Shown: in pieces, positions 2,810 through 29,794 of the stretch
Layout of the letters: each line of letters opens with the position of its first letter
How positions within the stretch are numbered: the first letter of the stretch is position 1
IMG/VR virus record: IMGVR_UViG_2534682161_000019
DNA length: 44,580 bases
Reading direction: 5' to 3' (one strand)
Origin: a virus
Lineage: Duplodnaviria; Heunggongvirae; Uroviricota; Caudoviricetes
Made by a program: the position numbers and the translations under genes
Notes under the pieces: generated by a model
Databases searched by the model: none
Seen by the model: the letters and a program-made list of their open reading frames with translations, nothing else
Told to the model about the DNA's origin: nothing

Positions 2810-2875
2810 GTGGTCACATGCCTTACAGCATGACCGCCGCCAATATAATTCGGAGGCGGCGATCAGGGTTGAACA

Positions 2876-5359: not shown

Positions 5360-5452
5360 TTTGTTTTAACCTCATTACAGATTTAAGGGTGAACAAATCC
5401 CTGCCATTGCTGGCATATAAAAATGAAACCGGATATTAATTACGGTGCTGTT

Positions 5453-6613: not shown

Positions 6614-6628
6614 AAGTCAGGTAATACC

Positions 6629-6853
6629 ATGAGAAAATCCGCAGAATATTTGCAGCTTTTTGATGATGCAGAAAAATATTCTGATTCGGAATTGAAAATT
6701 CAGTTAAAAACTCTGGAAAAAACAGATAATCATATTTGGTCATCACTTAAAGATATTGCGATCTTAAAAACACAGATCAAAATAGGCGTCTCCATCGAAC
6801 AACAAGAGAAGTTGCCCACAAAATCCAAATTGATGCGATTTCTTTGTGGTTAG
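6629..6853 (+). CDS. hypothetical protein, same frame as 6407-6613 and separated from it by one stop codon
   Basis: 74-aa ORF; ATG 15 nt after the preceding TAA. Confidence 0.3.
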   Translation: MRKSAEYLQLFDDAEKYSDSELKIQLKTLEKTDNHIWSSLKDIAILKTQIKIGVSIEQQEKLPTKSKLMRFLCG

Positions 6854-6942
6854 GAATATCCAGATTGTTAAAGAGCATGCCGGAGGTTTATCCGTGTCCG
6901 GCGCACGCACTTCATCTGCGGAGAACTACTTGAGCTCATTGG

Positions 6943-7158
6943 TCAGTAGTTTTCAATCACTCGCGAAACGTTTAATGCCGCGCTTTTTGCCAGAGTGGTA
7001 ATATCCTGCTCCGCTGACACCAGTTCTTTAGAGAGGCGCTCTTTGTAGTCAGCGGCCTGCTTCAGGTCATTAATGGCGCGTATCTTTCCGCACATCCATT
7101 CGTAAATTTCATCCTCGGTATAGTCTGGTGCGATGATGACGGGTTCTCGTTTCTGCAT
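6943..7158 (-). CDS. hypothetical early protein
   Basis: 71-aa ORF in the leftward operon. Confidence 0.4.
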   Translation of the reverse strand: MQKREPVIIAPDYTEDEIYEWMCGKIRAINDLKQAADYKERLSKELVSAEQDITTLAKSAALNVSRVIENY

Positions 7159-7187
7159 ACTGATTCCTCGAGGTGCCGCTTCGCTTA

Positions 7188-7316
7188 TCAGTCGTTAGAT
7201 TTTGCCGAACTGGAAAGCGCCTGTTTAAACTCACTGAAGCTGAGAGCTTCTTCGCCTTCGGCAAGGCCTTCGAAGTATTCTTCGTAAGCCTTTTCCATGA
7301 TTGCGTCGAAATCCAT
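7188..7316 (-). CDS. hypothetical small acidic protein (42 aa)
   Basis: Not in the ORF track (under 60 aa); ATG at 7316 preceded by AGGTGAG RBS; MDFDAIMEKAYEEYFEGLAEGEEALSFSEFKQALSSSAKSND; fits tightly between flanking leftward genes. Confidence 0.35.
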   Translation of the reverse strand: MDFDAIMEKAYEEYFEGLAEGEEALSFSEFKQALSSSAKSND

Positions 7317-7317
7317 A

Positions 7318-7554
7318 TCACTCACCTGAATTTCTTTCCAGCCAGCGACGCGCGCCAGCTTCGGTTTTAAACGTTTTGCTTCTGGTATACGTCATCGCGG
7401 TGAACGTGCCGTCCTGGTTGGGAAACACGCCGTACACCAGAGATTCGTTGTTGCCAAGATCGATAGTATCCATGCTGACCTCATTTCCCCTTAACGCCGG
7501 GGTAGCGGAACAAAAACCTGCTGCATAGTTATTAAAGTTGAACCCTGCCGTCAT
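7318..7554 (-). CDS. hypothetical protein, first gene of the leftward early operon
   Basis: 78-aa ORF; an alternative start at 7473 (MDTIDLG...) has a GAGG RBS; not Arg-rich, so not an N-like antiterminator. Confidence 0.4.
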   Translation of the reverse strand: MTAGFNFNNYAAGFCSATPALRGNEVSMDTIDLGNNESLVYGVFPNQDGTFTAMTYTRSKTFKTEAGARRWLERNSGE

Positions 7555-7649
7555 GTTCTTACGCCTCGGGCTGGCTACTTAACCCCTGACCACTGCCGGG
7601 TAACTCTAGGTATTGCCCTGCGTTCTGTGGGGCGGGGTGGGTTGGCATG

Positions 7650-7700
7650 TATATAATGTACTTTATGTTCAGTGTTGTAAAGTACTTTGAGTACATTTTA
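7650..7700. promoter_or_regulatory. leftward early promoter/operator region (OL-like) with ATGTACT operator motifs
   Basis: ATGTACT at 7656-7662 (+) and 7690-7696 (-); 13-mer ATGTACTCAAAGT on the minus strand (7684-7696) is identical to one at 8240-8252. Confidence 0.45.
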
Positions 7701-7771
7701 TGTGTAAAAAAATGAGATGGGAAAAAGTGAAGCACAAACCCGGAGGGGGACGCTACCGGATTTATGCTGGT

Positions 7772-8191
7772 TTAAGAGGCTTTTTGTTTTTTCTTTCGTG
7801 CTAACTCTTCGTAAATTGCATTGTACTTTTGTTTTTTCTCCTCAAGAGTTTTTAAAAGTTCATCTGTCTCACTGTCAGGGAGCTCGTCCAGAAGATCAAT
7901 GATGATTTTTTGTCTTGGATTTAACTCCTGATAGAAACGTACCTGTCCACTTTCTTCTGTATCCTCTCCCAAAAGATAGGTTGGTGTTGTTCCAATGAGT
8001 GTTGCTAATTCCCTTAATTTCTCTCGGCGAGGAATTGTTTCGCCATTAAACCATTTGCTAACCGCTTTTGGTGTTAATTTCATTCGACGGGCAATTTCTG
8101 CCTGCCTTCCATGTTGTTCATAACCAGCGTTTTCACAGGCTAGCGCAAGCCTACTGGCGAACTCTTTACGCGCTTTATCTTCATGAACCAT
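7772..8191 (-). CDS. prophage repressor, HTH XRE family (RacR/DicA-like, no S24 peptidase domain)
   Basis: 139 aa; N-terminal HTH (...QAEIARRMKLTPKAVSKWFNGETIP...); acidic C-terminus; divergent from a Cro-like gene. Confidence 0.7.
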   Translation of the reverse strand: MVHEDKARKEFASRLALACENAGYEQHGRQAEIARRMKLTPKAVSKWFNGETIPRREKLRELATLIGTTPTYLLGEDTEESGQVRFYQELNPRQKIIIDLLDELPDSETDELLKTLEEKKQKYNAIYEELARKKKQKAS

Positions 8192-8199
8192 AAGTTCAA

Positions 8200-8260
8200 T
8201 GATATTCGCTCTTGAATGTACTGTCAGTTCTGTTATAGCATGTACTCAAAGTTCACATTG
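8200..8260. promoter_or_regulatory. divergent promoter/operator region between repressor and cro-like gene (OR-like)
   Basis: ATGTACT motifs at 8216-8222 and 8240-8246; shares 13-mer ATGTACTCAAAGT with the OL-like region. Confidence 0.5.
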
Positions 8261-8270
8261 TGAGGGTGAT

Positions 8271-8525
8271 ATGAACCAGAAAACACTTGAAGATGTAATC
8301 AAAACTGTTCGCGTTTCTGTTGTGGCCGACGTTTGTGGTGTCAGCCAAAGAGCAATCTACAAATGGATGGATAACGGAAAATTGCCTCGCACTGAATATA
8401 CCGGCGAAACAAATTATGCTGAAAAAATCGCTCATGCATCAAACGGATTATTTTCTGCCGATGCAATTTTAACTATTGGCAGAAATAAAACTACTACGAA
8501 AAAGCTGTTGGGAGTTGATTCATGA
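8271..8525 (+). CDS. Cro-like / YdaS-family small HTH regulator
   Basis: 84 aa from the ATG at 8271 (RBS GAGGGTGA); HTH-like VADVCGVSQRAIYKWMDNGKLP; divergent from the repressor. Confidence 0.6.
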   Translation: MNQKTLEDVIKTVRVSVVADVCGVSQRAIYKWMDNGKLPRTEYTGETNYAEKIAHASNGLFSADAILTIGRNKTTTKKLLGVDS

Positions 8526-8947
8526 AAATCAAGCATGAGCACATCCGCATGGCGATGAATGCCTGGTCGCATCCGGACGGCGAAAAAGTTCCGGCAGCTG
8601 AAATAACCCGGGCTTATTTTGAACTGGGTATGACGTTTCCGGAACTGTACGACGATTCACACCCAGAAGCCCTGGCTCGCAATACTCAGAAGATTTTCCG
8701 CTGGGTGGAGAAAGACACCCCTGATGCGGTTAAAAAAATTCAGGCGTTGTTACCAGCGATCGAAAAAGCAATGCCACCTCTGCTGGTGGCCCGAATGCGC
8801 AGCCACAGTTCAACCTGGTTTCGGGAGCTGGTGGAGACGCGGGAACGACTGGTGAGAGACGCTGATGATTTTGTCGCAGTGGCGATCGCTGGTTTCAATC
8901 AGATGAATCGTGGTGGTCCGGCGGGAAATGCCGTGGTGATGCACTAA
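8522..8947 (+). CDS. YdaT-like / CII-like early regulatory protein
   Basis: 141 aa directly after the cro-like gene (start overlaps its stop); same position and size as ydaT of Rac; assignment from recollection. Confidence 0.45.
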   Translation: MKIKHEHIRMAMNAWSHPDGEKVPAAEITRAYFELGMTFPELYDDSHPEALARNTQKIFRWVEKDTPDAVKKIQALLPAIEKAMPPLLVARMRSHSSTWFRELVETRERLVRDADDFVAVAIAGFNQMNRGGPAGNAVVMH

Positions 8948-8970
8948 AAGCACGGTGTTCGGAGTTTTTT

Positions 8971-9918
8971 ATGAGCAGCAAGCTTCATGGTCTTGTCTGG
9001 GAAGGGTGTGCCTTCACCGGCATGATCTTATCCAGGGTGGCAGTAATGGCTCGCCTTGCAGATTACAGCAATGACGAAGGTGTGTCATGGCCTGCAGTGG
9101 AGACCATTCGTCGTCAGATTGGGGCAAAGAGTGAATCAACGGTTAAAGCGGCGATAGCGGAACTGGAAAAGAACGGCTGGCTGACGAAGGAGGAACGTAA
9201 GGTCGGTGGGCGTAATGAAAGCAATATCTACCGTCTTAATGTGGAAAAACTCGAAGCAGCAGCAGCGGCGGCGCGTGAGGCATATAAACCGAAAAGAAAA
9301 ATTAACCCGGTAAAAAATGACCCGTCAAATATTGACCCCTCAACGGTTGACCCCTCAAATTTTGATGGATCAACCGTTGATAAAAAACATTCGGTTAGGG
9401 GGACGATGGTTGGCCCCGATCCGTCAGTATTAAAACCTGATCCGCCAGATAAAAGATCTTCTTGTCCGGACGCTTCGCAACCGGACCCGCAGATGGCTGA
9501 ACAGGATTTTTTAACCCGACACCCTGACGCGGTTGTGTTCAGTGCGAAAAAACGCCAGTGGGGCAGCCAGGAAGATTTAGCGTGTGCGCAGTGGATCTGG
9601 GGGCGAATCGTGAGTCTTTACGAGCAGGCTGCCAGCGATGATGGCGAAATCATGCGACCGAAAGAACCAAACTGGACTGCATGGGCCAATGATGTGCGCA
9701 CAATGCGGATGCTGGATGGCAGAACTCACAGACAAATTTGCGAAATGTTTGGTCGGGTACAGCGGGATCCATTCTGGGTAAAAAACATCATGAGTCCGGC
9801 AAAACTCCGGGAAAAATGGGATGAGCTGGTTATTCGTCTGGGGCGTTCGCCTGTACAGCGTTGCGTGAATCACATTTCTGAACCGGATACCGAAATTCCG
9901 CCGGGGTTCAGGGGGTAA
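8971..9918 (+). CDS. replication initiator protein (O-like; N-terminal winged HTH)
   Basis: 315 aa; N-terminal HTH (...VSWPAVETIRRQIGAKSESTVKAAIAELEKNGWL...); internal DPSNIDPSTVDPSNFDGSTVD tract encoded by iteron-like DNA repeats. Confidence 0.6.
   Translation: MSSKLHGLVWEGCAFTGMILSRVAVMARLADYSNDEGVSWPAVETIRRQIGAKSESTVKAAIAELEKNGWLTKEERKVGGRNESNIYRLNVEKLEAAAAAAREAYKPKRKINPVKNDPSNIDPSTVDPSNFDGSTVDKKHSVRGTMVGPDPSVLKPDPPDKRSSCPDASQPDPQMAEQDFLTRHPDAVVFSAKKRQWGSQEDLACAQWIWGRIVSLYEQAASDDGEIMRPKEPNWTAWANDVRTMRMLDGRTHRQICEMFGRVQRDPFWVKNIMSPAKLREKWDELVIRLGRSPVQRCVNHISEPDTEIPPGFRG
9313..9381. repeat. iteron-like direct/inverted repeats inside the replication gene (putative origin)
   Basis: Repeated TGACCC(C)TCAA units (aaaaatgacccgtcaaat / attgacccctcaacgg / ttgacccctcaaat / tttgatggatcaaccgttga) followed by an A-run. 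Confidence 0.45.
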
Positions 9919-9960
9919 GTGTTGATTTGAGGTCATGAAGTTATTTTCTCAGGAGAGTTT

Positions 9961-10362
9961 ATGGGGGCTATTTATACCGAAGAACAGCGGGAAAGATTAC
10001 AGCGTCACATCGTTGACCTTGTACGTAAAAACGGGCGTATGAAAATGCCACAACTGGCATCGGCAACATATGCTTCACATGATTCCATTCGCCGGTACCT
10101 GAAGATGCTGGTGAGCCAGGGCGAAGTGTATGTTGTCAGCGGAAAAGGGGTATTCCTTTCAGAGAGAGTTTACCGTGAATGGCTGGCAAGTTCGGCAAAA
10201 AAATCAAGGGTTATCCGCAAACCAGCACAAAAACAGGGTAAGGCCGGAGTACAACCCTACGACCGGCACCAGAACGTAATTTGCCGGGAATGTCGTAACA
10301 GCGAATCAATGCAGCGGGTACTGGCTTTTTACCGGGGTGGATTTCAGGAGCTCGTATCGTGA
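9961..10362 (+). CDS. hypothetical protein
   Basis: 133-aa ORF; ATG preceded by AGGAGAG. Confidence 0.45.
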   Translation: MGAIYTEEQRERLQRHIVDLVRKNGRMKMPQLASATYASHDSIRRYLKMLVSQGEVYVVSGKGVFLSERVYREWLASSAKKSRVIRKPAQKQGKAGVQPYDRHQNVICRECRNSESMQRVLAFYRGGFQELVS

Positions 10363-10667
10363 AAAAGTGGGTGCGTGCCGAGATACTGATTCTACGGCAG
10401 TGTGCGGGAACAATGACGGTGGAATGTATCGGGATGCTTATTGGTCGTAGTGAGGCTGCGGTCAGAACGAAAGCGCGGGAACTGGGTATTAGTATGATGT
10501 TACGGGGTGATTATCACCAGTCAGCAAAATATCCGCAGAGTGATATTGAGCTGGCGCGACAGCTGCATCAGCTTGGCGTGTCCAGGAGAGAAATCGCCAG
10601 AAAATTTGGAATGCCGCTGCGCACAGTGAATAACTACGTTTATTTCGACAGGAGGGTGTCTGCGTGA
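10359..10667 (+). CDS. hypothetical HTH-containing protein
   Basis: 102 aa with two HTH-like stretches (GRSEAAVRTKARELGIS and GVSRREIARKFGMPLRTV); start overlaps previous stop. Confidence 0.45.
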   Translation: MKKWVRAEILILRQCAGTMTVECIGMLIGRSEAAVRTKARELGISMMLRGDYHQSAKYPQSDIELARQLHQLGVSRREIARKFGMPLRTVNNYVYFDRRVSA

Positions 10668-10897
10668 AAATCCTGTATCAGGATTACGGCCCGGTGGGAC
10701 AGGTGGTTATCAGCAGTACTGTAATGGAGTTCCGGAAGCATAACCGTGTGGTGGATGCAGTACTGTTAGCCTGTCCGGGGATATCGGCGAGCCGTGCAGG
10801 TGTGTTTTTTATGAAGACGAAGTTATATGGCAGTACAGCGTGGATAAAGAAGGCGTACCGGGTAGCGTTACAGGAGGTAAACAGTGAGCGAAATTAA
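10664..10897 (+). CDS. hypothetical protein
   Basis: 77-aa ORF translationally coupled to its neighbours. Confidence 0.35.
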   Translation: MKILYQDYGPVGQVVISSTVMEFRKHNRVVDAVLLACPGISASRAGVFFMKTKLYGSTAWIKKAYRVALQEVNSERN

Positions 10898-11345
10898 CTG
10901 TCAGGCACTGCGAGAGGCGGCAGAGAAAGCAACTAAAGGAAGCTACATCGTAGGGCATACGTCTGTTAACCAGCATGGCAATTTAACAGGAGTTTTTGTT
11001 TGTCAAAAATGGAAAGGAGAACCCGGTGGCGTGATTGCAGAATGTCATGTTAACTGCCTGGTTGAAACAGATGCTCAGGCTTACGCAAACGCTGAATTTA
11101 TTGCTGCCTTTAATCCAAAGGTTGCGCTGGCGATACTGGATAAGCTGGAAGCTAAAGACAAGCGCATTGCAGAACTGGAGGCGAGGGAAATCCAGTTACC
11201 TGCTGGCTTCGACCTTCGATATGGACACCCGATAAATGCTGATGAGCGACATGTGATGATACCTAAAGAAAATGGCAACTGGATTCATCGGACTGACTTA
11301 GAGCACTCACTACGTGTTGCAGGGATTCGTATTAAAGGAGACTAA
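10884..11345 (+). CDS. Ead/Ea22-like protein
   Basis: 153 aa; resembles the Ead/Ea22-like family common in E. coli prophages (recollection only); coiled-coil-like middle. Confidence 0.4.
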   Translation: MSEINCQALREAAEKATKGSYIVGHTSVNQHGNLTGVFVCQKWKGEPGGVIAECHVNCLVETDAQAYANAEFIAAFNPKVALAILDKLEAKDKRIAELEAREIQLPAGFDLRYGHPINADERHVMIPKENGNWIHRTDLEHSLRVAGIRIKGD

Positions 11346-11346
11346 C

Positions 11347-11703
11347 GTGGAAATAAAACCAGAAGATGAGTTAAGTAATATTGTTTTATTTCCGGTAAAA
11401 GAGGATGACCCACGTAATCAGGTTAATTTTCTTTATGAGCCATCGGAAAGACCATATTGTCATCACGACTCTGTCCGGGTTGACGAAAAAGAGCGTCAGG
11501 TCCGCTGTAAAATCTGCGGTGCAGTTGTGGAGCCATTTGACTGGATGCTCTCTGTGGCGAAAAGAGAAACCAGACTGGCAGATGATGTAAGGATCTTGCG
11601 CCAGGAGGAACGGGAAAGGCGGAGAAATATAGAAAAGCTAATTCAGATTGAGCGTAACGTGAAAGCGCGGATACGCAGGGCGACAAAATCCAGAACAGAA
11701 TAA
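11347..11703 (+). CDS. hypothetical zinc-ribbon protein
   Basis: GTG start 7 nt after a perfect AAGGAG RBS (track gives an upstream overlapping ATG at 11314); CHHD...CKICG Cys/His cluster; Arg-rich C-terminus. Confidence 0.45.
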   Translation: MEIKPEDELSNIVLFPVKEDDPRNQVNFLYEPSERPYCHHDSVRVDEKERQVRCKICGAVVEPFDWMLSVAKRETRLADDVRILRQEERERRRNIEKLIQIERNVKARIRRATKSRTE

Positions 11704-11751
11704 TTAAATTTAGCACTGTTAAAAATTTAATCCTTAACCGGAGGTATATCA

Positions 11752-11946
11752 ATGTCAAACGCACAGAAAGTTATTAACGCTGAAAAATATAACGAGTGGG
11801 TGAAAAAGTTCTCAGAGCAGATTTTTAAAATTACTGGCGACGAGAATGCGGCAAAAAATGAATTAGAGCCGTGGACACCTGAAGGTGTCGCCCCAAATTA
11901 TTGCTGGTGGATGTTGATCCAGTTGATGCTGCAAATGAAGCGATGA
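11752..11946 (+). CDS. hypothetical protein
   Basis: 64-aa ORF; GGAGG RBS upstream. Confidence 0.4.
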   Translation: MSNAQKVINAEKYNEWVKKFSEQIFKITGDENAAKNELEPWTPEGVAPNYCWWMLIQLMLQMKR

Positions 11947-11998
11947 GTTATCACAACGATTAATGTCAGGAGGCCGCCCGAAAGGGCGGTAATGAAAA

Positions 11999-12689
11999 GT
12001 GACTGAATTAACCAAAGAGCAATTAATCGAAGAAGCCAAATTAAAAATAGCGATTGCGAAATGCCACCCCAATTCAGGGATGGCACGGGTAGAGGGCGAG
12101 TTATTCAAAATTGCACTGGCATCGCTGGTAGCAGAACCGCTGGTGCCCGTCATGTATAAAGGAATGAAACTGTTAACAAAAGAGGGGCTTGAGCTTATTC
12201 GTGACGGTATTGCGGAGGCTACGGGACTGGAAGCAATGTGTATGGCTGATGCTTTGCTGTCTGGGGGGGGGGGCAGTGCCGTCAGTGCCGAAAGAAATGT
12301 ATTGGCAGGATGCACCAGTTGAAAGTAGCAGCAAAGCAGCTGCATACGCTACAGGCTGGAAAGCCTGCCGCGAAGCCATGCTTCAGTCCGGAAACTTTCG
12401 GGATAATAAGAATTCGTCAACCAACAATTTTCGGGAAATCCCGGAAACGTCAACCAGCTCTCAGGGAACTCCGGCTGGCTGGATAAGCTGTAGTGATGCA
12501 GTTCCTGCTGAATATTGCGATGTGATTCTGCGCGATGATCTCGGGAATGTATTCCCCGGTTCATGGGATAAGGTTTTTTGCCCCACTCGTGGCGGGAATA
12601 AGATGGCTTTTGTGGACAAAGACGGCGTCGAAGTAGAGAGCTCAACCCACTGGATGCCGCTACCAGAATCGCCGAAGGTGGTGAAGTGA
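11999..12689 (+). CDS. DUF551-like protein interrupted by a frameshift at a G11 homopolymer (possible pseudogene, phase-variable gene or sequencing artefact)
   Basis: ORF 11999-12322 and ORF 12189-12689 are in different frames and join across GGGGGGGGGGG at 12263-12273; removing one G gives a continuous ~229-aa protein ending ...WMPLPESPKVVK. Confidence 0.45.
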
Positions 12690-12762
12690 TGGAAAATGAA
12701 TTCGAAAATGCTATCGCCACGGTGCAGCCAAAATCAATAGTTGAGTAGACTTACTCTGAGGC

Positions 12763-12791
12763 TTGACTACGAGGTTACCATTAGGTGTAAT
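12763..12791 (+). promoter_or_regulatory. sigma70-like promoter upstream of the AT-rich island
   Basis: TTGACT (12763-12768), 17-nt spacer, TGTAAT (12786-12791). Confidence 0.4.
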
Positions 12792-12863
12792 TTAGAGTAA
12801 GTTGGTAGCCTCAGTTGTCGAAGAGGCATAATGGTGATTGTTAGTTGATGCAATAATTAAGGA

Positions 12864-13355
12864 ATGTTAATGCCTACTAATGCTGAACAACCAGTATCAA
12901 TTAGTAAACCGAAGACCGTTACACTTCGTGCTTTTGAAATAAAAAACACTGCACTTTCGAAAAGTTCTAGCGAAGCTAAGGCCGATTTGATAGCAAGGCT
13001 TAGTCAAGTAAAACAGGCAAAAGATAGATGCATGTTGTTAAATCCAGAAGATCCTAAGCAGGAAAGAGATGTTCTTTCGTATTTTAAAGAATCTCCTGTT
13101 ACTGATTCAGTATTTTGCACTATGTTAAGGATTACATCTGACAAAGAAATCCAACACATAACAGATTCTCTTTTTGAGAAAGAGGTCTTTTCTCTGGATG
13201 ATATAGAAACATCTCATTTAGATGTGTCAGCAATATGTAAAGGCCATTACTATTTTTGCATGAGTGATGATTTTTTAGTTACAAATCTCCCATTAAATAA
13301 AACGATTGTGCGTTTACAAACGTATCTGAGTTGGTTTACAAATAATGAGCTTTAA
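12864..13355 (+). CDS. hypothetical protein, first gene of the AT-rich island
   Basis: 163-aa ORF; AAGGA RBS favours the second ATG at 12870; no recognised motif; AT-rich codon usage unlike the surrounding prophage. Confidence 0.5.
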   Translation: MLMPTNAEQPVSISKPKTVTLRAFEIKNTALSKSSSEAKADLIARLSQVKQAKDRCMLLNPEDPKQERDVLSYFKESPVTDSVFCTMLRITSDKEIQHITDSLFEKEVFSLDDIETSHLDVSAICKGHYYFCMSDDFLVTNLPLNKTIVRLQTYLSWFTNNEL

Positions 13356-13370
13356 GAATTCACCCCACTA

Positions 13371-13883
13371 GTGTCAGCAAAAGGGAAAACGAAACTTAGT
13401 GATTTAAAAGCCATAATCGTTAAAGATCCAGAACCGTTAGTACCGACTGCTATGTGTGATGAGTCTGGTGTTAGAAGTAAAAAGGGAGAAATTACGGTTA
13501 GCGAAGGTCATAAATCTATCAAGTTAACACAAAAAGTTCTGGATATTATCAGGAGTTCGATGTCAGACTCTGAACAACTTAATGATATGATGCTGAGTCA
13601 AATGATTTCTGCTGAATTGTTAATAAAATTTAAAAAGCCACGCAGAATGACAGATGATGAATATAGTAGAGCTTTAGGGGCTTATTTGAAACCCGTTAGC
13701 GATCTTGATAATGTATCATTTAAGCGAAAAGATAACAAAACAGAAGTGAAAGGCAAGGATTTGCTGTTAACAAAGTCTGTAAGTATTGAAACGACACAGT
13801 CAGGTAAATTAGTTGAGCATCATTTGCTACAAGAGATGAGCAAGTTTTTGCTAGAGTTAAGCAATGAAAAAAATAGCGGTTAG
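13371..13883 (+). CDS. hypothetical protein, second gene of the AT-rich island (same frame as the first, separated by one TAA)
   Basis: 170-aa ORF with a GTG start and no clear RBS; in-frame continuation of 12864-13355 across the stop at 13353-13355. Confidence 0.45.
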   Translation: MSAKGKTKLSDLKAIIVKDPEPLVPTAMCDESGVRSKKGEITVSEGHKSIKLTQKVLDIIRSSMSDSEQLNDMMLSQMISAELLIKFKKPRRMTDDEYSRALGAYLKPVSDLDNVSFKRKDNKTEVKGKDLLLTKSVSIETTQSGKLVEHHLLQEMSKFLLELSNEKNSG

Positions 13884-14325
13884 CGTATTATCAATATTGC
13901 TGCTCACATTGTTGGCTAGTTCAGTCTGGGATGTTCGTCCGGACGGTTTTTTTGCGTCGACAGTTTTTACAATTTCTGGAATAATGTTCTCAATTGGATT
14001 AGGGCTAATTGTGAATTTTAGCACATCCGGTGTAAGGAACCGTGGATACATTCTGCGTATTAGACGTAATGTAATGAGGGTGAGGAATTCATTTCTATTA
14101 TATTTTGGTTTGTCGACTTTTTCTTACATAGCAAATCAATATCTTACTGCTTTTGAGTTTTCTTTAACCTTTGGTGATGGTATCAAAACATGTTTTAGCG
14201 CATCCATATTCTTTTGCTTGCTTATAATTTATTCCTCTATATATTTTGTTGTTAATTTTATAGAGTTGCAAAAACTCAATAATGATATTTTTGATAAAGT
14301 CAATGCGGAAATAACTAACAAATGA
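13864..14325 (+). CDS. hypothetical integral membrane protein (about 4 TM helices), third gene of the AT-rich island
   Basis: 153 aa; hydrophobic segments SVLSILLLTLLASSVW, VFTISGIMFSIGLGLIVNF, FLLYFGLSTFSYIANQYL, FSASIFFCLLIIYSSIYFVVNFI; overlaps the upstream ORF by 20 nt. Confidence 0.55.
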   Translation: MKKIAVSVLSILLLTLLASSVWDVRPDGFFASTVFTISGIMFSIGLGLIVNFSTSGVRNRGYILRIRRNVMRVRNSFLLYFGLSTFSYIANQYLTAFEFSLTFGDGIKTCFSASIFFCLLIIYSSIYFVVNFIELQKLNNDIFDKVNAEITNK

Positions 14326-14523
14326 AATGGCTTTTGTGTGCATGTTAAATAAAGAATACATGGCATCATTTAATGATGTCATGTGTAACGAGCGAAAAGC
14401 CTTTTGAACGGTTTTCATAAGTTATATTGAAAGATAAAATTGCTGCGGGTGCTTGAGGCTATCTGCCTCAGGCATGAACACCAACGGCAGATAGATAAAA
14501 GCCCCACCCGACTATAAATCGAA

Positions 14524-14742
14524 GTGAGGCCCCTATATGCTCGTCACATACAGATTGCCTCTTACGGACCGAAAGGTCAAGGAGAAGCAGGCTATGAAGC
14601 AGCAAAAGGCGATGCTAATCGCCCTGATCGTCATCTGTTTAACCGTCATAGTGACGGCACTGGTAACGAGGAAAGACCTCTGCGAGGTACGAATCCGAAC
14701 CGGCCAGACGGAGGTCGCTGTCTTCACAGCTTACGAACCTGA
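14524..14742 (+). CDS. mok: mok-like overlapping reading frame of the hok toxin locus
   Basis: 72-aa ORF starting upstream of hok and overlapping it in another frame, ending 7 nt before the hok stop. Confidence 0.5.
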   Translation: MRPLYARHIQIASYGPKGQGEAGYEAAKGDANRPDRHLFNRHSDGTGNEERPLRGTNPNRPDGGRCLHSLRT

Positions 14743-14749
14743 GGAGTAA
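14594..14749 (+). CDS. hok: Hok/Gef-family type I toxin (HokD/RelF-like)
   Basis: 51-aa product MKQQKAMLIALIVICLTVIVTALVTRKDLCEVRIRTGQTEVAVFTAYEPEE: single TM helix plus conserved C-terminus; matches HokD as I recall it. Confidence 0.85.
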   Translation: MKQQKAMLIALIVICLTVIVTALVTRKDLCEVRIRTGQTEVAVFTAYEPEE

Positions 14750-14915
14750 GAGACCTGGCGGGGAGAATTCCCTCGCCACCTCTGATGTGTCAGGCTTCCT
14801 CAACGCACCCGCACTTAACCCGCTTCGGTGGGTTTTGTTTTTTCTGTGCATTCTGGTTTACAATTCGCACGCCAGCCTGAACAACTGGCACCTGCTGCGC
14901 CAGCAGAGACAACCG

Positions 14916-15194
14916 ATGGCGCACGATACCAAATTACACAATTCTGATGATTCTGCCGTCTTTGCCAGCAGGCACGGGCTGCGTTCTCACGCATTCAAAT
15001 ATGACTGGTATCAGCACGATCCCTGTACTGAAGAACAGGCCGAATGGCTGATTCATAACTACCGCAGACGTGGGTATGAGTTTAAGAAAGCCCTCAGTCT
15101 CGATTATCGTCACTGGATAATCTACGTCAGGCTCCCTTATTCCGAACGCCCGCCGCGTCCATCCCGCACATTCCAGCAACGGATCTGGAGGTAA
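14916..15194 (+). CDS. hypothetical protein (DUF1364-like/Rem-like position between hok and DUF968 gene)
   Basis: Track gives 14787-15194 with a GTG start and hydrophobic N-terminus; the internal ATG at 14916 yields a 92-aa product; start uncertain. Confidence 0.35.
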   Translation: MAHDTKLHNSDDSAVFASRHGLRSHAFKYDWYQHDPCTEEQAEWLIHNYRRRGYEFKKALSLDYRHWIIYVRLPYSERPPRPSRTFQQRIWR

Positions 15195-15195
15195 C

Positions 15196-16245
15196 GTGCG
15201 GGTATTACTTCGACCTGTTCCGGTGCCGGAACTCGGGCTGGTGGTCCTTAAGCCGGGCCGTGAATCTATGCAGGTATTTCATAATCCCCGGGTACTGGTG
15301 GAGCCGGAACCGAAAAGCATGCGCGGTCTGCCGTCCGGAGCTGTTCCTGCCGTTCGCCAGGCGCTGGCGGAAGATAAATCATTACTGCCATTTTTCAGCG
15401 ATGAGCGGGTGATTCGTGCTGCTGGCGGCGCTGGTGCACTGTCTGACTGGCTGTTGCGTCATGTCAAATCCTGCCAGTGGCCTCATGGTGACTATCATCA
15501 CAGTGAAACCGTCATACATCGTTACGGTACCGGCGCGATGGTGTTGTGCTGGCACTGCGACAACCAGTTGCGTGACCAGACCTCCGAATCACTCGGGCAA
15601 CTTGCTCATCAAAACCTGTCGGCATGGATGATTGACGTCATACGCCACGCAATGAATGGCACACAAGAGCGGGAATTATCGCTGGCTGAATTGTACTGCT
15701 GGGCTGCTGTAAATGATGTAGTGGATGCCATGACCGAAAATATGGCGCGTCGAATCCTGAAGCGTCCGGGTGAAAAAATCCGCTCAATATACCGCGAGAG
15801 CGACATCATACCGGGAGAACCGACAGCCACCAGCATACTGAAGCAGCGCACAAAAAATATTGCGCTACCACCTTACGCCCACCAGCAACAGAACCCACCA
15901 CAGGAAAAGACGGTGGTCAGCATCGCCGTTGATCCGGAGTCTCCTGAATCTTTCATGAAGCGACCTAAACGTCGCCGTTGGGTAAATGAGAAATATACGC
16001 GCTGGGTGAAGACTCAGCCGTGTGCGTGTTGTGGTCAACCAGCCGACGATCCCCATCACCTGATTGGTCATGGTCAGGGCGGAATGGGAACAAAGGCCCA
16101 CGATATTTTTACACTACCGCTGTGCCGGGAGCATCACAACGAACTTCATGCGGATCTGCTGGCGTTCGAAGAAAACCATGGTTCCCAGATTGATTTAATT
16201 TTTCGTTTTCTTGATCACGCCTTTGCAACCGGCGTGCTTGGGTAA
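15196..16245 (+). CDS. DUF968-like protein (YdfU-like) with C-terminal HNH-like Cys/His motif
   Basis: 349 aa; GTG start 5 nt after GGAGG; C-terminal ...CACCGQPADDPHHLIGHG...CREHHNELH. Confidence 0.55.
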   Translation: MRVLLRPVPVPELGLVVLKPGRESMQVFHNPRVLVEPEPKSMRGLPSGAVPAVRQALAEDKSLLPFFSDERVIRAAGGAGALSDWLLRHVKSCQWPHGDYHHSETVIHRYGTGAMVLCWHCDNQLRDQTSESLGQLAHQNLSAWMIDVIRHAMNGTQERELSLAELYCWAAVNDVVDAMTENMARRILKRPGEKIRSIYRESDIIPGEPTATSILKQRTKNIALPPYAHQQQNPPQEKTVVSIAVDPESPESFMKRPKRRRWVNEKYTRWVKTQPCACCGQPADDPHHLIGHGQGGMGTKAHDIFTLPLCREHHNELHADLLAFEENHGSQIDLIFRFLDHAFATGVLG

Positions 16246-16257
16246 AAGAGGTTACTG

Positions 16258-16629
16258 ATGCGTATAGAGTTTGTTTTGCCTTACCCGCCGACGGTGAACA
16301 CCTACTGGCGACGTCATGGCAGCACATATTTTGTATCAAAAGCCGGTGAGCGTTATCGCCGTGATGTGGCGTTCATTGTTCGCCAGCAGCGGTTGAAATT
16401 AAACCTCTCCGGAAGGCTGGCGATAAAGATTATTGCAGAGCCACCGGATAAGCGCCGTCGTGACCTGGACAATATCCTGAAAGCACTGCTGGATGCGCTG
16501 ACACATGCGGGGCTGCTTATAGACGACGACCAGTTTGATGAAATCAATATTGTGCATGGTCTGCCTGTTTGCGGTGGGCGACTGGGTGTGAATATATTCG
16601 TAATAAGAGGATGTAATGATGTTGCGTGA
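16258..16629 (+). CDS. rusA: RusA-family Holliday junction resolvase
   Basis: 123 aa; [12 protein letters not shown]...[27 protein letters not shown] matches RusA (PPS.N.YYR...RRRDLDN...DAL..AG...DD). Confidence 0.8.
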
Positions 16630-16990
16630 TATTCAGCTGGTTATGGAGCGGTGGGGAGCATGGGCAGCAAGTAATCATGAAGATGTAACATGGTCCTCGA
16701 TAGCTGCTGGTTTTAAAGGATTAATCCCGACTAAAGTGAAATCACGTCCTCAGTGTTCTGATGATGACGCCATGATAATTTGTGGCTGTATGGCACGATT
16801 AAACAAGAATAATCAGTATTTGCACGATTTGTTGGTGGATTATTACGTAGGTGGAATGACATTTATGGCTCTTGCACGTAAGCATAGATGTTCTGATGGG
16901 CTTATTGGTAAAAGACTTTATAAAGCTGAAGGTATTATTGAAGGAATGCTTATGGCTCTGAATGTCCGGTTAGATATGGATATGCGGTAG
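16616..16990 (+). CDS. Q: late-gene antiterminator Q (phage 82/21-type, Quu-like)
   Basis: 124 aa; [18 protein letters not shown]...[14 protein letters not shown]...LLVDYYV... resembles E. coli prophage Quu antiterminators; immediately upstream of the late region. Confidence 0.7.
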
Positions 16991-17137
16991 GGATATATAG
17001 TGACGAGGGTTATGTTTTCCGTGTTTATAATTAATATGTTTATTTTTTGATGGTCATGAATTTTATGGAAGGTAAACAAAATGTTGCCAGGTGAATTGAA
17101 AATATTGATAATCAATCATCATCATTAAATAAAAGGA

Positions 17138-17961
17138 GTGTTTATGTGGATTGTGTTAGCACTGTCACTGTCAACTCTCAGTTGGCATAAGGTAGTGGCT
17201 TTTTCATTGTTGACGGTGTCTGTTGTCCTGGCTGTGCTTAATGATATTATTGATTGGCCGGTGTTGTTTTTTGTTGCTACAATCGTTTTTTTTATTATTT
17301 TGAAGTTCAACTGGAAATATAACGCCTGGGCTAAATCCATATATGAAGCTGGCATAGTTTTATCAGCCATAGCATTATCTTTCCATTTATGGCCAGGGTT
17401 TCACAATCCTGTAGTGCTAAAGTCTGTCACTGTCGGACCTCAAAGCACTCCCTATACAATGTATTTTAATTTTGATAAAGCGCTGGTGCCATTTTTGTTA
17501 GTCCTGTGTACAGCTTCTTTGTTTAAAAAAGAAGTGAAATCAGAAGTGTCTTTGTGGAAATGGGGGGCTCTGTTGCTCTCTGTTCCTCTTATACTGTTTT
17601 TGGCTGTTTTTTTGGTGGGTTAAAGCCAGAGATTCATTTTCCAGAGTGGTTGCCAGAGTTTATATTGGCTAATTTGTTTTTTGTGTCTCTGGCAGAGGAG
17701 TCATTATTTAGAGGGTATATTCAATCACGGCTATCAGAAGTGACGTCTCCATTGGTTGCGTTAATTGTGGCGTCTTTGTTGTTTGGTTTTTATCACTATT
17801 CAGGTGGTGCTTTACTTGTATTATTTGCCACGTTATCTGGTGTTGTGTATGGATTGTCATGGATGTGGAGTGGGTGCTTGTGGGTGGCAACCCTTTTCCA
17901 TTTTGGTCTGAATCTGTGTCACTTGTTATTCTTTACCTATCCATTCTTAAAACATAATTGA
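17138..17961 (+). CDS. CPBP-family intramembrane metalloprotease (CAAX protease/Abi domain), disrupted by a frameshift in a T7 run
   Basis: ORFs 17138-17623 and 17554-17961 overlap in different frames; second part carries CPBP motifs EESLFRGY, FGFYHY, HFGLN; adding one T to the T7 run at 17607-17613 restores a single ~275-aa multi-TM protein; AT-rich. Confidence 0.65.
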
Positions 17962-18102
17962 TTTTTTTCTATGGCTTTAAATTTATAACACTGAAAAATA
18001 GCAGTATGTGACATTTGCATGAAAAATATGCACGGCAAAGCATTTACGTACGTAAAAAATCATGTATGCTTTTAAGAGTGGTTATTTCACCGCATAGCCT
18101 GA

Positions 18103-18126
18103 ACCCGCCTCTGAGCGGGTTTTTTG
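18103..18126 (+). terminator. rho-independent terminator after the CPBP gene
   Basis: ACCCGC-CTCTGA-GCGGGT hairpin followed by TTTTTTG. Confidence 0.55.
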
Positions 18127-18248
18127 TGCCCGCAAAGTAGCGCAGTGCGTTAAATGTGCTGGTAGTTATTAATACTGGTCTTTCTGCTTGCTGGCTTTTT
18201 AGACAAGAGTTATTGGTATGTCACGTTAACCAGAAAAGGGAAAAAGAC

Positions 18249-18446
18249 ATGCTAAAACAGCAGGATATGACCGAAACCGCCAGAGTGGTGTTTAATGAAT
18301 TAAGCGTCACCGAACCGGCGACCGTCGGGGAGATTGCGCAGAATACTTACCTTTCACGCGAGCGCTGCCAGTTAATACTGACTCAGCTTGTTATGGCGGG
18401 TCTGGCAGATTATCAGTTCGGTTGTTACAGACGCCTTCCGCAGTGA
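18249..18446 (+). CDS. hypothetical small winged-helix-like protein upstream of the methyltransferase
   Basis: 65 aa from the ATG at 18249 (AAGGGA RBS); ...VGEIAQNTYLSRERCQLILTQLVMAGL... resembles a DNA-binding wHTH. Confidence 0.45.
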   Translation: MLKQQDMTETARVVFNELSVTEPATVGEIAQNTYLSRERCQLILTQLVMAGLADYQFGCYRRLPQ

Positions 18447-18596
18447 AGGCTTTTTAATTTGTGGTAATGGGCGGCTGGTGGGTGTTAGCGGCACCTGCCA
18501 GCCATCTGCTCATGCGTTGGGGTCACAAGCAAACCTCAGGCCCATCTGCTTTGCGCAAAAGCGGTATGAGCCTATCAGAGAAGTGCTTATTGATCT

Positions 18597-19146
18597 ATGG
18601 CTAATACTGTAAAAATATCCAGCTGCGAGTTAATCAACGCTGATTTCCTGGAATTTATCCAGACCTTACCGGAAAACTCTGTCGATCTGATAGTCACAGA
18701 CCCGCCATACTTTAAAGTGAAGCCCGAGGGCTGGGATAACCAGTGGAAGGGCGACGATGATTACCTGAAATGGCTGGATCAGTGTCTGGCGCAGTTCTGG
18801 TGGGTATTAAAACCCGCCGGAAGTCTTTACCTGTTCTGTGGTCATCGCCTGGCATCTGATATCGAAATCATGATGCGTGAGCGCTTTAATGTGCTGAACC
18901 ACATTATCTGGGCGAAGCCGTCCGGGCGCTGGAACGGGTGCAACAAGGAAAGCCTGCGGGCGTATTTCCCGGCAACAGAGCGCATTCTGTTTGCGTCCGG
19001 GAGATTTGGTTGCCGACTTTTTCATGGGGTCAGGCTCCATAATAAAAGCAGCGCTGGCACTTGGGGGCATGGCGTTAAGCGTTGAACTTGAGTCTGAACG
19101 TTTTGAGCATACTGCGGGTGAAATAGTTACGTTGGCAGATAATTAA
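18597..19146 (+). CDS. DNA methyltransferase (N6-adenine/N4-cytosine type, DPPY motif), apparently frameshifted or internally deleted
   Basis: N-terminal frame contains TDPPYF; the SAM-binding motif (PGDLVADFFMGSGS...ALALGG...) is in a different frame ending at 19146; the combined length is short for this family. Confidence 0.55.
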
Positions 19147-19260
19147 ATCACTGCACAATAAGCTAATGAATTGATGTTAACTTCCCGTATTATTGGGCTA
19201 CTTCGAGAGAAAGGTGCATTACATTTCAGATGTATTTCATCTCACATCCGAGGAAGCAAT

Positions 19261-19336
<76 letters not shown>

Positions 19337-19339
19337 TAT

Positions 19340-19414
<75 letters not shown>

Positions 19415-19546
19415 ACATTTGATAGAGGCGTATTGCAGCACTGGCGTATTTTTATTACGTGAGGACAGATTGTTTTTTTAGGAACTCTCAGTTTTCGGGC
19501 TATGTTTTGAGGCCAGGTTAGCCTCAGTGCTGATTTTTTACAATAC

Positions 19547-19615
19547 CGGAATGGTGCATTATTGGTTGGGTTACGTAGTGAGCCCTATGGCAGGTACCGG
19601 TGATGCACCATTCCG
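19547..19615. other. long imperfect hairpin (13-bp stem, ~43-nt loop) downstream of the tRNAs
   Basis: CGGAATGGTGCAT (19547-19559) pairs with ATGCACCATTCCG (19603-19615). Confidence 0.4.
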
Positions 19616-19694
19616 ATGTTGTAAACATCACTTAGAGTAAGTTATAGAACAATTTGCTACTAAGTAAAACCTGAAACCTGGGAATACATCTTTA

Positions 19695-19718
19695 CCGCCA
19701 CACTTGGCGGTTTTTTTT
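19695..19718 (+). terminator. rho-independent terminator (possible tR-prime-like late terminator)
   Basis: CCGCCA-CACT-TGGCGG hairpin followed by TTTTTTTT. Confidence 0.6.
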
Positions 19719-19816
19719 ATTCTGTTTTTTCATGGCTCGCTACGGCGGCCTTTTTCATGTATACCCTGGCGGTTATTATGATGGCTTGTTTATTTGTTCA
19801 TAAGAGGATTGATACA

Positions 19817-20299
19817 GTGGTCACTTATGCTGATATCAGGGCAAAACGGGCCGAAATACTGAAAGCTAAGCAGGAATACATTCAGCGGTTGCGGGATACA
19901 GCCACAAGGCTGGTCAATGCCTATGAGTCTTCACTGGCGTTGCCGGAACTGCAATGGCGAGACATTGAGGGTGAGTTACATCCTTACGTCTATATTTGCT
20001 TCAATGGCTTCAGTGTCCGACCGGAGGATTTGCAGGTAGACCTTAGGGACGGAGTTGCGTTTAAATTATACACAGTTGTTGATGACAATCCCCGCCAGTC
20101 TGCAAGTATGGAAGTTGGTGTAAAGATTGTGCTGCTTGATGGCGATAACCTGACGATTTCAGTTAATGGTTATGGGGACAGAACATTTTCGCACGTAGAT
20201 ACCGATGCAAAAATTAACGAGGTATGCGAGTTCATCAAAGACAGTATTTTAATGTCGATGAATGATGTGAATTTGGCAAAGCATCTCTGCCGAAGATAG
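19817..20299 (+). CDS. hypothetical protein (moron at the position stx occupies in Stx phages)
   Basis: ORF track 19757-20299; GTG at 19817 lies 9 nt after an AAGAGG RBS; no recognised motif. Confidence 0.4.
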   Translation: MVTYADIRAKRAEILKAKQEYIQRLRDTATRLVNAYESSLALPELQWRDIEGELHPYVYICFNGFSVRPEDLQVDLRDGVAFKLYTVVDDNPRQSASMEVGVKIVLLDGDNLTISVNGYGDRTFSHVDTDAKINEVCEFIKDSILMSMNDVNLAKHLCRR

Positions 20300-20509
20300 A
20301 AGGCAGGAGTCGTAAAAAGGAATCGTTCGAAAATCTCAGAATCACCAGGCTGCGCATTTGCGTGGCCTTTTTTGTATCCGCGCCACGCCCGGCGCATATC
20401 AAAAACCACAGAGCCTTTCAGGGGTGAGCTTACGGGATGGTCAGTGTGACTTTCTCTGTGGGCTGGTCACCCCCGGGCGCAGGCTCACCCACTAAAAGGA
20501 AAAGTCACG

Positions 20510-20935
20510 ATGTTTGGTATTTTCAAAAAGAAAACACGCAAGGCCATTACCGAAGTGAAGAAGATGGAGAACCGCGACGCAGTGGAGGCGACCGTCTGGG
20601 GTGCGTATTCCATTGCATACGCTGACGACACCTGTGACTCGAAAGAAATCGCGGTACTGGAGAAAACCATTGCAGCACTTCCTGCCTTTGCGCCGTTCTC
20701 CGGTGAGATTGCACAAATGAGTGCAAATATCCGCGCCCGTTATGAAGCGTCGCCGCGCTCTGCCAATGCTGAAGCCCTTCGCCAGCTGGCTGATGTCGCC
20801 GGTACTGATGACGCAGTGAATGTGCTGTGCCTGTGTCTGGATATTGCAGACCAGGATGGCATTGGGCCGGAGGAAGAAGTACAGCTCAAGAAAATTGCTC
20901 AGGCGCTTCAGTTACCGCTGGAGCAGTACCTGTGA
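20510..20935 (+). CDS. TerB-like (tellurite-resistance TerB domain) protein
   Basis: 141 aa; layout ...AYSIAYADDTCDSKEIAVLE... and ...DIADQDGIGPEEEVQLKKIAQALQL... resembles the two TerB repeat units (ADG..S.EE / SDG.FDDDEK...IA..LG). Confidence 0.5.
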   Translation: MFGIFKKKTRKAITEVKKMENRDAVEATVWGAYSIAYADDTCDSKEIAVLEKTIAALPAFAPFSGEIAQMSANIRARYEASPRSANAEALRQLADVAGTDDAVNVLCLCLDIADQDGIGPEEEVQLKKIAQALQLPLEQYL

Positions 20936-21084
20936 AAAGTGCGCGCCTTGTACTGGCTGCCATCCTGCTGTTTCTGGTAGTGGTGGTGGATTTTACCGGA
21001 CGGCTGATGTCGGTACTGGCAGATGGTGTGCTGGTGGTGATGGTGTTGGTCGTGCTCCGGCCTTTACTGCGCAAATCTGAATAA
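20932..21084 (+). CDS. hypothetical small hydrophobic peptide overlapping the TerB-like stop
   Basis: GTG at 20932 overlaps the TGA of the upstream gene (GTGA); 50-aa product VKSARLVLAAILLFLVVVVDFTGRLMSVLADGVLVVMVLVVLRPLLRKSE. Confidence 0.3.
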   Translation: MKSARLVLAAILLFLVVVVDFTGRLMSVLADGVLVVMVLVVLRPLLRKSE

Positions 21085-21195
21085 CACCACGCAAAAGGCA
21101 TCTGCGGGTGCCTTTGATTGGGTGTTGTTTTTACGGGCCGCTGGTGGCCTTTTTTGTTTCCATTATACAACGCCCGCATCTGCGAGGTGGGGGTT

Positions 21196-22372: not shown

Positions 22373-22599
22373 TTTTTTCAATGCGTTGTATCGTCGCCGT
22401 ATTTCCGCATTAACAGAGACCGCAGCCCTATGGGGAGACTCCTCTGCGCGAGTGTGCGGGGATAATCAAAAACGATACACACCGGGGTTTACTGCGTTAA
22501 CGGAGCGCGGCGTTGTCCCCTCATAGTCGCCTGGCCGGTGCGATGGTGGAAGAAACCGGAACACATTACAAAATGATAACAATTATCATTTTTCGGGTC

Positions 22600-22700
22600 C
22601 TCCTGGCGGGGTGGGCCTGTACACGGGGCGGGTCGGCGCGGAAAAAAGCGCATTTTTGTGATTTTATCGTCATCATCATCATGTATGTAAACTGTTGTTT
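22600..22700. other. putative cos site (cosN-like cohesive-end region) upstream of the terminase small subunit
   Basis: GGGCGGGTCGGC at 22626-22637 resembles the lambda cohesive end GGGCGGCGACCT; located between Rz and terS as cos is in lambda. Confidence 0.4.
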
Positions 22701-22828
22701 TTAATGTAATTGATACAAAAAAGATGATGGTTGTGGCCAATTTTTGTTCGACATCTTTGTGTGGCGGCATTTCTTTACAAAAAAAACAGAATCACTTCTG
22801 TTCAGAGGGGTATGTGGAGGAGGCGTAG

Positions 22829-23305
22829 ATGGACGGCGAGCTGAAAAATATGAAGTTAAATATTAATCAACTGGCAGCCCTTTCAGGCCTGCACCGGCAG
22901 ACCGTTACCGCAAGAATGGCGGATGTTCCTCTTGCTCCGGGCAGTAATGAGAAGAAAAAACTTTATCTCCTGACGGACCTGATTACTGCGCTGCTGGCAA
23001 AAACACCATCTACCGAAGATGAGGAGATGAATCCACACGATCGCAAGGCATGGTATCAGTCCGAGCGCGAGCGTCTTAAATTTCAGCATGAAACTGTTCA
23101 GCTTGTCCCTGTCAGTGATGTCAGGCGGTCGTTTTCCGTCGTGGTGAAAGCCATTGTGCAGATACTGGAAACCTGGCCTGACAGGCTGGAGAGGGACAGG
23201 GGGTGGACTGCATCACAACTGAACGAAGTGCAGATCGTTGTTGATGAGATCCGTGACACGCTGGAAAAGGCAGTGATTGCCTGCTGTGATGAGGCTGATA
23301 TGTGA
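22829..23305 (+). CDS. terminase small subunit (Nu1-like position, N-terminal HTH)
   Basis: 158 aa; ATG 5 nt after GGAGGAGG; N-terminal LNINQLAALSGLHRQTVTARMADVP; immediately precedes and overlaps the gpA-like terminase. Confidence 0.65.
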   Translation: MDGELKNMKLNINQLAALSGLHRQTVTARMADVPLAPGSNEKKKLYLLTDLITALLAKTPSTEDEEMNPHDRKAWYQSERERLKFQHETVQLVPVSDVRRSFSVVVKAIVQILETWPDRLERDRGWTASQLNEVQIVVDEIRDTLEKAVIACCDEADM

Positions 23306-29105: not shown

Positions 29106-29127
29106 TAACCGCGTTATCACAATCACT

Positions 29128-29146: not shown

Positions 29147-29191
29147 ATGCCTGAAAACAGCCCCCCGGGGGCTGTCCGGAGAGACAGCATT

Positions 29192-29792: not shown

Positions 29793-29794
29793 GT

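Follow-up and report, generated by a model that had tools for sequence, protein, structure and literature searches.

The DNA stretch considered here, hereafter called the window, is a sequence of 44,580 nucleotides (nt) catalogued in IMG/VR as a member of the Caudoviricetes (IMGVR_UViG_2534682161_000019). It is a lambda-like prophage of Escherichia coli STEC_7v, located downstream of yccA and beside an older prophage remnant, and it has 100% identity to AEXD01000008.1 from this strain across 20,480 bases. Six of its accessory genes are disrupted: a DUF551 gene, the first gene of a low-GC island, a CPBP/Rce1-like intramembrane protease gene, an N6/N4 DNA methyltransferase gene and two small early genes encoding proteins of 148 and 70 amino acids (aa) when intact. 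These lesions are very probably genuine: inactivating mutations, passed on by inheritance, that accumulated stepwise in dispensable accessory genes of a vertically transmitted prophage, the structural genes of which are intact.

Six disrupted genes and their recurrence

The first-pass annotation of the window, made from the letters alone, had pointed to four lesions: an 11-nt G run (G11) in the DUF551 gene, a 7-nt T run (T7) in the CPBP gene, an in-frame stop codon in the island and a split methyltransferase gene. All four are present in the sequence. The methyltransferase gene is indeed broken, but alignment to an intact gene shows an out-of-frame internal deletion of ~502 bp rather than a point frameshift. 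Two further lesions, both also in accessory genes, affect the 148-aa and 70-aa genes; that of the 148-aa gene falls outside the region which the first-pass annotation covered in this remark. For comparison with public assemblies, the truncated products were searched as exact sequences in a collection of 15 billion proteins, and the contigs encoding them were then retrieved. All the N-terminal fragments searched are present in this collection (contig counts are given in Table 1). At least 10 independent assemblies combine the G11 tract, the TAA codon of the island gene, the frameshift of the small 70-aa gene and the methyltransferase deletion; these assemblies differ from the window by 0–5 single-nucleotide polymorphisms (SNPs) over 3–20 kb and form a near-clonal lineage. 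Each of the six lesions is found again in other assemblies; the window has a single private difference, which is intergenic, in a T run (19711–19718) that follows a terminator-like hairpin (region 19694–19718), with eight T residues (T8) in the window and nine (T9) in every relative covering the site. Intact versions exist for all six genes, and the disrupted proteins lose conserved parts: the DUF551 domain, the Rce1-like domain, a motif of the island protein and aa ~134–300 of the methyltransferase.

The part missing from the methyltransferase gene corresponds to nt ~399–900 of the 1059-nt intact gene in L061. The remnant keeps the DPPY motif, and its FxGxG motif is out of frame. It belongs to the PF01555 family and matches type II and orphan methylase models; PGAP labels the gene 'incomplete' in all relatives, and OkiPb01695 carries the same remnant. 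The 40-aa tail open reading frame (ORF) of the deleted gene is found in 261 contigs, the deletion being common to many different prophages. Orphan N6/N4 methyltransferases of the same family are found downstream of Q in lambdoid and Shiga toxin (Stx) prophages, in the same position (Q, small ORF, methyltransferase, tRNAs), and intact homologues, including the full-length versions in those prophages, have 352–358 aa. The window copy differs from them in being a remnant without ~502 bp, and this allele is itself widespread.

The island gene is interrupted by a TAA codon at 13353–13355 (TTA>TAA), inside a conserved NEL-L-EFTP motif. OkiPb01695 has TTA at this position and an intact ORF of 337 codons. 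Full-length homologues of about 330–345 aa are spread across Enterobacterales, and the single ORF is taken to be ancestral because the distant homologues are full-length single ORFs. The alternative that the split ORF is an ancestral two-gene state was ruled out, as all distant homologues are single ORFs of ~335 aa.

In the 148-aa gene, a CAA>TAA change at 6611–6613 creates a stop at codon 69. Fragments of 68 and 74 aa are encoded throughout the lineage with TAA codons (TAA lineage), and the 148-aa protein is encoded in the sister lineage with TTA in the island gene (TTA lineage); the gene is intact in OkiPb01695. It has no matches in PADLOC or Pfam. The 70-aa gene, located just upstream of the DUF551 gene, has no known function and carries a GGG>GG deletion at ~11909–11911 (TGGTGGATG in the window, TGGTGGGATG in strain N96), which does not lie in a long homopolymer. 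Its orthologue is labelled 'frameshifted' by PGAP, and the frameshift is shared with OkiPb01695 and absent from N96. An Ead/Ea22-like gene is probably a remnant with a truncated or replaced C-terminus: its Pfam match spans profile positions 1–95 of 139, and PGAP describes the orthologue as 'incomplete; missing C-terminus'. The remaining early genes of the window are full length by codon-by-codon comparison with relatives.

Table 1. Positions of the disrupted genes, tracts and neighbouring features in the window, with the number of contigs found to encode each truncated product
Feature	Position	Strand	State and detail	Contigs
Early-left accessory gene, PHROG 6315, function unknown	6407-6853	+	nonsense; 148 aa when intact	
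Ead/Ea22-like gene	10884-11345	+	probable C-terminally truncated/replaced remnant (Pfam, PGAP)	
Small gene, PHROG 4659	11752-11963	+	1-bp deletion frameshift; 70 aa when intact	66 (64-aa product)
DUF551 gene	11999-12689	+	out of frame at poly-G; 229 aa when intact	13 (G11 product, 107 aa)
G11 tract	12263-12273	+	Gly linker between N-terminal part and DUF551 domain	
Island gene, predicted RexA-like fold	12870-13883	+	broken by TAA; 337 aa when intact	84 and 83 (gene halves)
Overlapping partner, RexB-like candidate	13864-14325	+	intact; 153-aa membrane protein (hydropathy scan)	
CPBP/Rce1-like intramembrane protease gene	17144-17961	+	frameshifted; 272 aa when intact	5 (T7 product, 159 aa)
T7 tract	17607-17613	+	T8 is the intact state; recurrent slippage site; T7 in two alleles, T9 in two alleles	
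N6/N4 DNA methyltransferase remnant	18597-19146	+	internal out-of-frame deletion of ~502 bp, junction near 18995/18996	13 (N-terminal part)
Lysis, head and tail module	21196-44580	+	TerL 23302-25425; tape measure 32459-35071; J 37473-41171	

Slippage tracts in the DUF551 and CPBP genes

With G11, the ORF at 11999–12322 shifts into the frame of the ORF at 12189–12689. A tract of ten G residues (G10) restores the 229-aa protein, the DUF551 domain of which (aa 160–226) lies downstream of the tract; the in-frame lengths are G7, G10 and G13, all others being out of frame. The products predicted for G7 to G14 were searched as exact proteins. Lengths of G8, G9, G10, G11, G12 and G13 were found in public assemblies with identical flanks, together with one G7 variant. 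Contig numbers were 1 for G8, 14–16 for G9, about 7 for G10, 13–24 each for G11 and G12, 3 for G13 and 1 for the G7 variant; about 11 of about 76 contigs are thus in frame, most copies being out of frame. Within a single SNP haplotype of the TAA lineage, G10 (complete genome AP025751.1), G11, G12 and G13 are all present, and the contigs with these lengths differ over 18–20 kb in the tract and otherwise by a few private changes at most. In one run series of the TTA lineage, G9 versus G10 is the sole difference across 14,044 bp. In both lineages, the tract is often the single difference between prophages over 14–20 kb. Other DUF551 homologues have no G tract at this site, where they read CTGGGGCGTCAGTGCC, and only 28 of 5426 complete genomes match the tract region at all. 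A pattern scan of IMG/VR for the tract and its flanks gave no match, because the tract is too lineage-specific. Judged from these sequence comparisons, the tract appears to be a recently arisen, highly unstable run that moves DUF551 in and out of frame, and its length seems to change faster than point mutations accumulate. There was no sign of selection for this instability; the tract is not conserved in homologues or between lineages. Transcriptional slippage was considered as a way of rescuing the G11 frameshift and is unlikely, as insertions by this mechanism in E. coli have been reported only in A/T runs (PMC5574713).

In the CPBP gene, T8 restores the 272-aa protein, and the CPBP domain (aa 169–258) lies downstream of the tract. 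Within the subclade of the window, T7 is common to STEC_7v and GCA_048027635.1, which also has the 7171A SNP of the window; sister isolates have T8 and an intact CPBP gene. A second T7 allele, 99% identical to that of the window, was found in three unrelated SRA runs, and T9 was found in the allele of the window and in a second, different allele. One of the T8 sisters, GCA_047669315.1, has an independent 4-bp insertion (TTAT), at the equivalent of window position ~17246, that also frameshifts CPBP. The intact form dominates for this allele (78 contigs with T8, about 6 with T7 and 1 with T9). A 71-nt query for the T7 form had no match in complete RefSeq genomes, where it retrieved 11 T8 records only, a requirement for a 28-nt word limiting the sensitivity of this search. 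The CPBP gene had no match in the phage-isolate collection at the megablast level. Residues 153–272 of the intact protein match positions 16–135 of PHROG 26389, a family of 135 positions; the 135-aa C-terminal ORF that remains after the T7 frameshift (17554–17961) covers the same region. Split CPBP genes may, then, already sit in deposited phage genomes. Just upstream of the gene, at 17084–17112, there is a sigma-70-like promoter match (10 of 12 positions).

Distribution of the lesions and competing explanations

The clustering described in the first-pass annotation, with lesions in accessory genes and intact structural genes, was borne out. The terminase (707 aa), J (1232 aa) and the tape measure have open frames, and a comparison with strain N96 that covered 24 genes for lysis, head and tail found each of them full length, with no internal stop. 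The late genes are about 98% identical to those of N96, with a ratio of nonsynonymous to synonymous changes (pN/pS) of 0.26, and no late-gene lesions were found in the clone members over the ~10 kb available. Of about 38.8 kb of coding DNA, about 13.1 kb (34%) belongs to genes that we classed as accessory. The probability of all six independent lesions falling in accessory genes is ~0.0015, and that for the original four is ~0.013. Taken by themselves, the two slippage lesions do not cluster significantly: 13 of the 17 runs of at least 7 nt lie before position 22800, and the location of these lesions follows from the longest coding tracts lying there.

Four mechanisms would account for the six lesions: base substitutions creating stop codons (CAA>TAA and TTA>TAA), the loss of 1 bp from a short G run, the internal deletion of ~502 bp in the methyltransferase gene, and replication slippage at long homopolymers (the DUF551 G tract and T8>T7 in CPBP). 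Their distribution suggests an order of age. The methyltransferase deletion, common to many different prophages, would be the oldest; it would have been followed by the small-gene frameshift, which is in both the TAA and TTA lineages and not in N96, then by the two nonsense codons that define the TAA lineage, and the T7 of the subclade formed by STEC_7v and one other isolate would be the youngest. Damage to the late genes would have been purged while the lineage still spread as a phage; the late module is also shared and exchanged with other lambdoid prophages. We infer that selection is the cause of the observed distribution and that the broken genes are dispensable. The first-pass annotation had named selective decay as one possibility, and the lesions agree with it in being heritable, nested in age and destructive of conserved domains. 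Fixed pseudogenes have resulted from the nonsense codons, the deletion and the small frameshift, and the overall picture is one of ordinary accessory-gene decay plus one slippage hot spot.

The homopolymer lesions (G11 and T7), and possibly others, might instead be consensus errors of an early draft, in genes that are really intact. Poly-G runs of 9–13 nt are difficult for short-read platforms. Two of the lesions do lie on long homopolymers, the exact prophage of the window is absent from the RefSeq complete-genome set, and the private T8 at 19711–19718, where all relatives have T9, is a further point in favour of this view. Homopolymer-biased sequencing error, which the first-pass annotation had offered as an explanation, is nevertheless highly improbable and is contradicted by the recurrence of lesions of mixed types in at least 10 independent assemblies. 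G11 is present in at least 13–24 contigs from independent projects, G9 is reproduced across many runs of one study, and T7 is found again in GCA_048027635.1, with its shared private SNP, and in the three unrelated SRA runs. Neither the two stop codons nor the 502-bp deletion is a homopolymer error, and these lesions are found in tens to hundreds of contigs, and the 23 kb of late genes have no stray frameshift, even at the A8 and T7 runs inside J and gpT. A role for the tracts as selected contingency switches of accessory genes (DUF551 and, perhaps, through its T8 tract, the CPBP/Abi-like gene) would explain why, in two lineages, no other character changes as fast as tract length, which ranges from G7 to G13 and includes both frame states, and why the CPBP tract is found both shortened and lengthened. 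The 11-nt run also exceeds the longest homopolymer in the coding genes of E. coli K-12, which is 9 nt (PMC5574713), and the Gly linker that it encodes would be expected to tolerate 2–4 Gly residues, such that in-frame lengths would remain functional. Adaptive phase variation seems quite improbable, however, given that the G tract is lineage-specific and missing from other DUF551 homologues, that DUF551 has no known function, and that the in-frame share is under the one third expected from random lengths, in a sampling that is clonal. The T8 tract is short for a switch, and its intact form dominates. Switching, as raised in the first-pass annotation, therefore holds mechanically for the G tract only, where prophages that are identical apart from the tract range from G7 to G13; reversal is not possible for the other four lesions, as two nonsense codons, a 502-bp deletion and a GGG>GG change cannot switch.

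A further explanation dispenses with selection, attributing the pattern to slippage-prone tracts in AT-rich or otherwise unusual accessory genes and to old pseudogene alleles in mosaic modules, the late genes being spared by youth or by recombination repair with co-resident prophages. The position of 13 of the 17 long runs in the early half, the presence of the methyltransferase deletion in many unrelated prophages, the scarcity of SNPs in the clone (0–5 per 20 kb) and the existence of near-identical head modules elsewhere, including in another prophage of the same assembly, are all in keeping with this view. It is unlikely, given that four of the six lesions lie away from long homopolymers, that all six lie in 34% of the coding DNA (p ~0.0015), that the late genes have a pN/pS of 0.26 relative to N96, and that J remains intact despite its A8 and T7 runs. 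That the lesions result from selection for the silencing or toggling of defence-type cargo genes, and not from neutral decay, is rather improbable; this reading is kept open by the G7–G13 tract, which would then be a true phase-variable switch of DUF551, something rare in E. coli, by the repeated independent knock-outs of CPBP and by the knocked-out RexA-like gene of what would be a hitherto unrecognized Rex-like cassette. Stepwise inherited decay remains the preferred reading, and some points weigh against it. The T8 at 19711–19718 is found in no second assembly, and a consensus error is plausible there; part of the spread in G-tract length between short-read assemblies may also be technical noise at poly-G runs of 9–13 nt. 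The clone is so young, with few SNPs, that structural intactness within it says little about ongoing selection, and the case for selection draws on six lesions and on the earlier history of the phage. We ourselves drew the line between accessory and core genes, and no function is known for most of the disrupted genes.

Prophage setting and relation to known systems

The lambda-like layout was read from the ORF listing, the base composition and comparison with annotated genomes. From the left, the gene order is integrase, large exonuclease, an immunity region with repressor, YdaS and YdaT, and an HTH_36 replication gene, followed by a block of small accessory genes and then DUF968, RusA and Q. 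The CPBP gene, the methyltransferase remnant and two tRNAs come after Q, and the right end holds the genes for lysis and a head and tail module of lambda type, which finishes with J, Lom and tail fibre genes. A full, undisrupted set of integration, regulation, lysis and virion genes is present; the tail-fibre assembly gene extends past the end of the window, and attR lies outside it. The older prophage remnant, present in all members of the clone, fills the first ~1.3 kb (1–1335), upstream of the integrase, and includes a 74-aa Ail/Lom fragment (e.g. 887–1111) with ~84% identity to the Lom gene at the opposite end. The two tRNA genes, tRNA-Thr(TGT) and tRNA-Gly(TCC), are at 19261–19414, 3' of the methyltransferase remnant, the place at which tRNAs and toxin genes are found in Stx phages; the window has no toxin genes beside them.

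The closest annotated relative is OkiPb01695, with 99.3% identity over window positions 1336–21159; it has G10 and T8, and its DUF551 and CPBP genes are intact, with 229 and 272 codons. The host flanks (2.4 kb) are identical in all seven strains compared, which points to vertical inheritance and a young lineage; there was no sign of recent horizontal transfer of the whole phage, nor any evidence of induction. Sequenced phage isolates include nothing close to it: the best match covers 36% of the early region at 91% identity. The hok gene (14596–14751) is intact in the window, and an 11-bp insertion frameshifts the OkiPb01695 copy (L003, 16439–16605); each lineage thus has its own private lesions in accessory genes. 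Other members of the clone (L044/L038, L048/L032 and L039/L051) have IS3-family insertions in the early region, located between DUF551 and the island, beside the 148-codon gene and within the exonuclease gene. An identical TerL and a near-identical head module (window ~22400–33100) are found in GCA_037967425.1 and GCA_004745695.1, the early and lysis regions of which are completely different, one having LT-II-like enterotoxin genes and the other Shiga toxin genes; the module is, therefore, shared between lambdoid prophages. One near-identical head module sits in the same genome assembly.

The island (12750–14420; 35% GC) is a two-gene cassette. The intact product of its first gene is modelled with a fold like that of lambda RexA/RdgC, and the 153-aa partner has three strong hydrophobic segments and one weaker segment in a simple hydropathy scan. 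Neither gene has a match in Pfam, PADLOC or PHROG, and comparison with lambda RexA and RexB gave no sequence signal (hhalign probability 0.1%, BLASTP E 0.06). The cassette may be considered a candidate remote Rex-like exclusion system, linked to Rex by predicted fold and gene arrangement. It differs from lambda RexA/RexB (PMC11077077) in lacking detectable sequence similarity to either protein, in lying between the replication genes and Q instead of beside the repressor, and in the stop codon that its RexA-like gene carries in the window.

The decay of resident lambdoid prophages in pathogenic E. coli is well known, from the 'defective prophage pool' of O157 Sakai and from work on prophage domestication. 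The window resembles Sakai-type prophages in the accumulation of point mutations, small indels, deletions and insertion-sequence insertions in a vertically inherited lambdoid prophage, and in having mosaic modules common to Stx and LT-II prophages. Domestication typically erodes lysis and virion genes first, whereas the lesions of the window spare these genes, a pattern that looks like selection on the phage rather than on the host. Contingency loci are uncommon in E. coli. Loci of this type, based on homopolymers, have been described in Bordetella, Neisseria, Haemophilus and Campylobacter (e.g. PMC1891110), and the DUF551 tract is like them in being a long intragenic poly-G run that changes by ±1 between near-identical isolates and shifts the frame. 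It is unlike them in that it is not conserved among homologues, that out-of-frame states predominate and that DUF551 has no known function.

For annotation, these results imply that the 'frameshifts' described here should stand as real pseudogenes and be left uncorrected, and that comparison with public assemblies can replace checks at the level of reads. They also draw attention to an uncharacterized two-gene cassette, widespread in Enterobacterales, the first protein of which has a predicted lambda RexA-like fold. The natural poly-G tract could be used in the study of repeat instability in E. coli, as a fast marker or as a test case. These observations do not overturn the current picture of how prophages evolve; they provide a dated succession of losses of accessory genes from a single clonal prophage.

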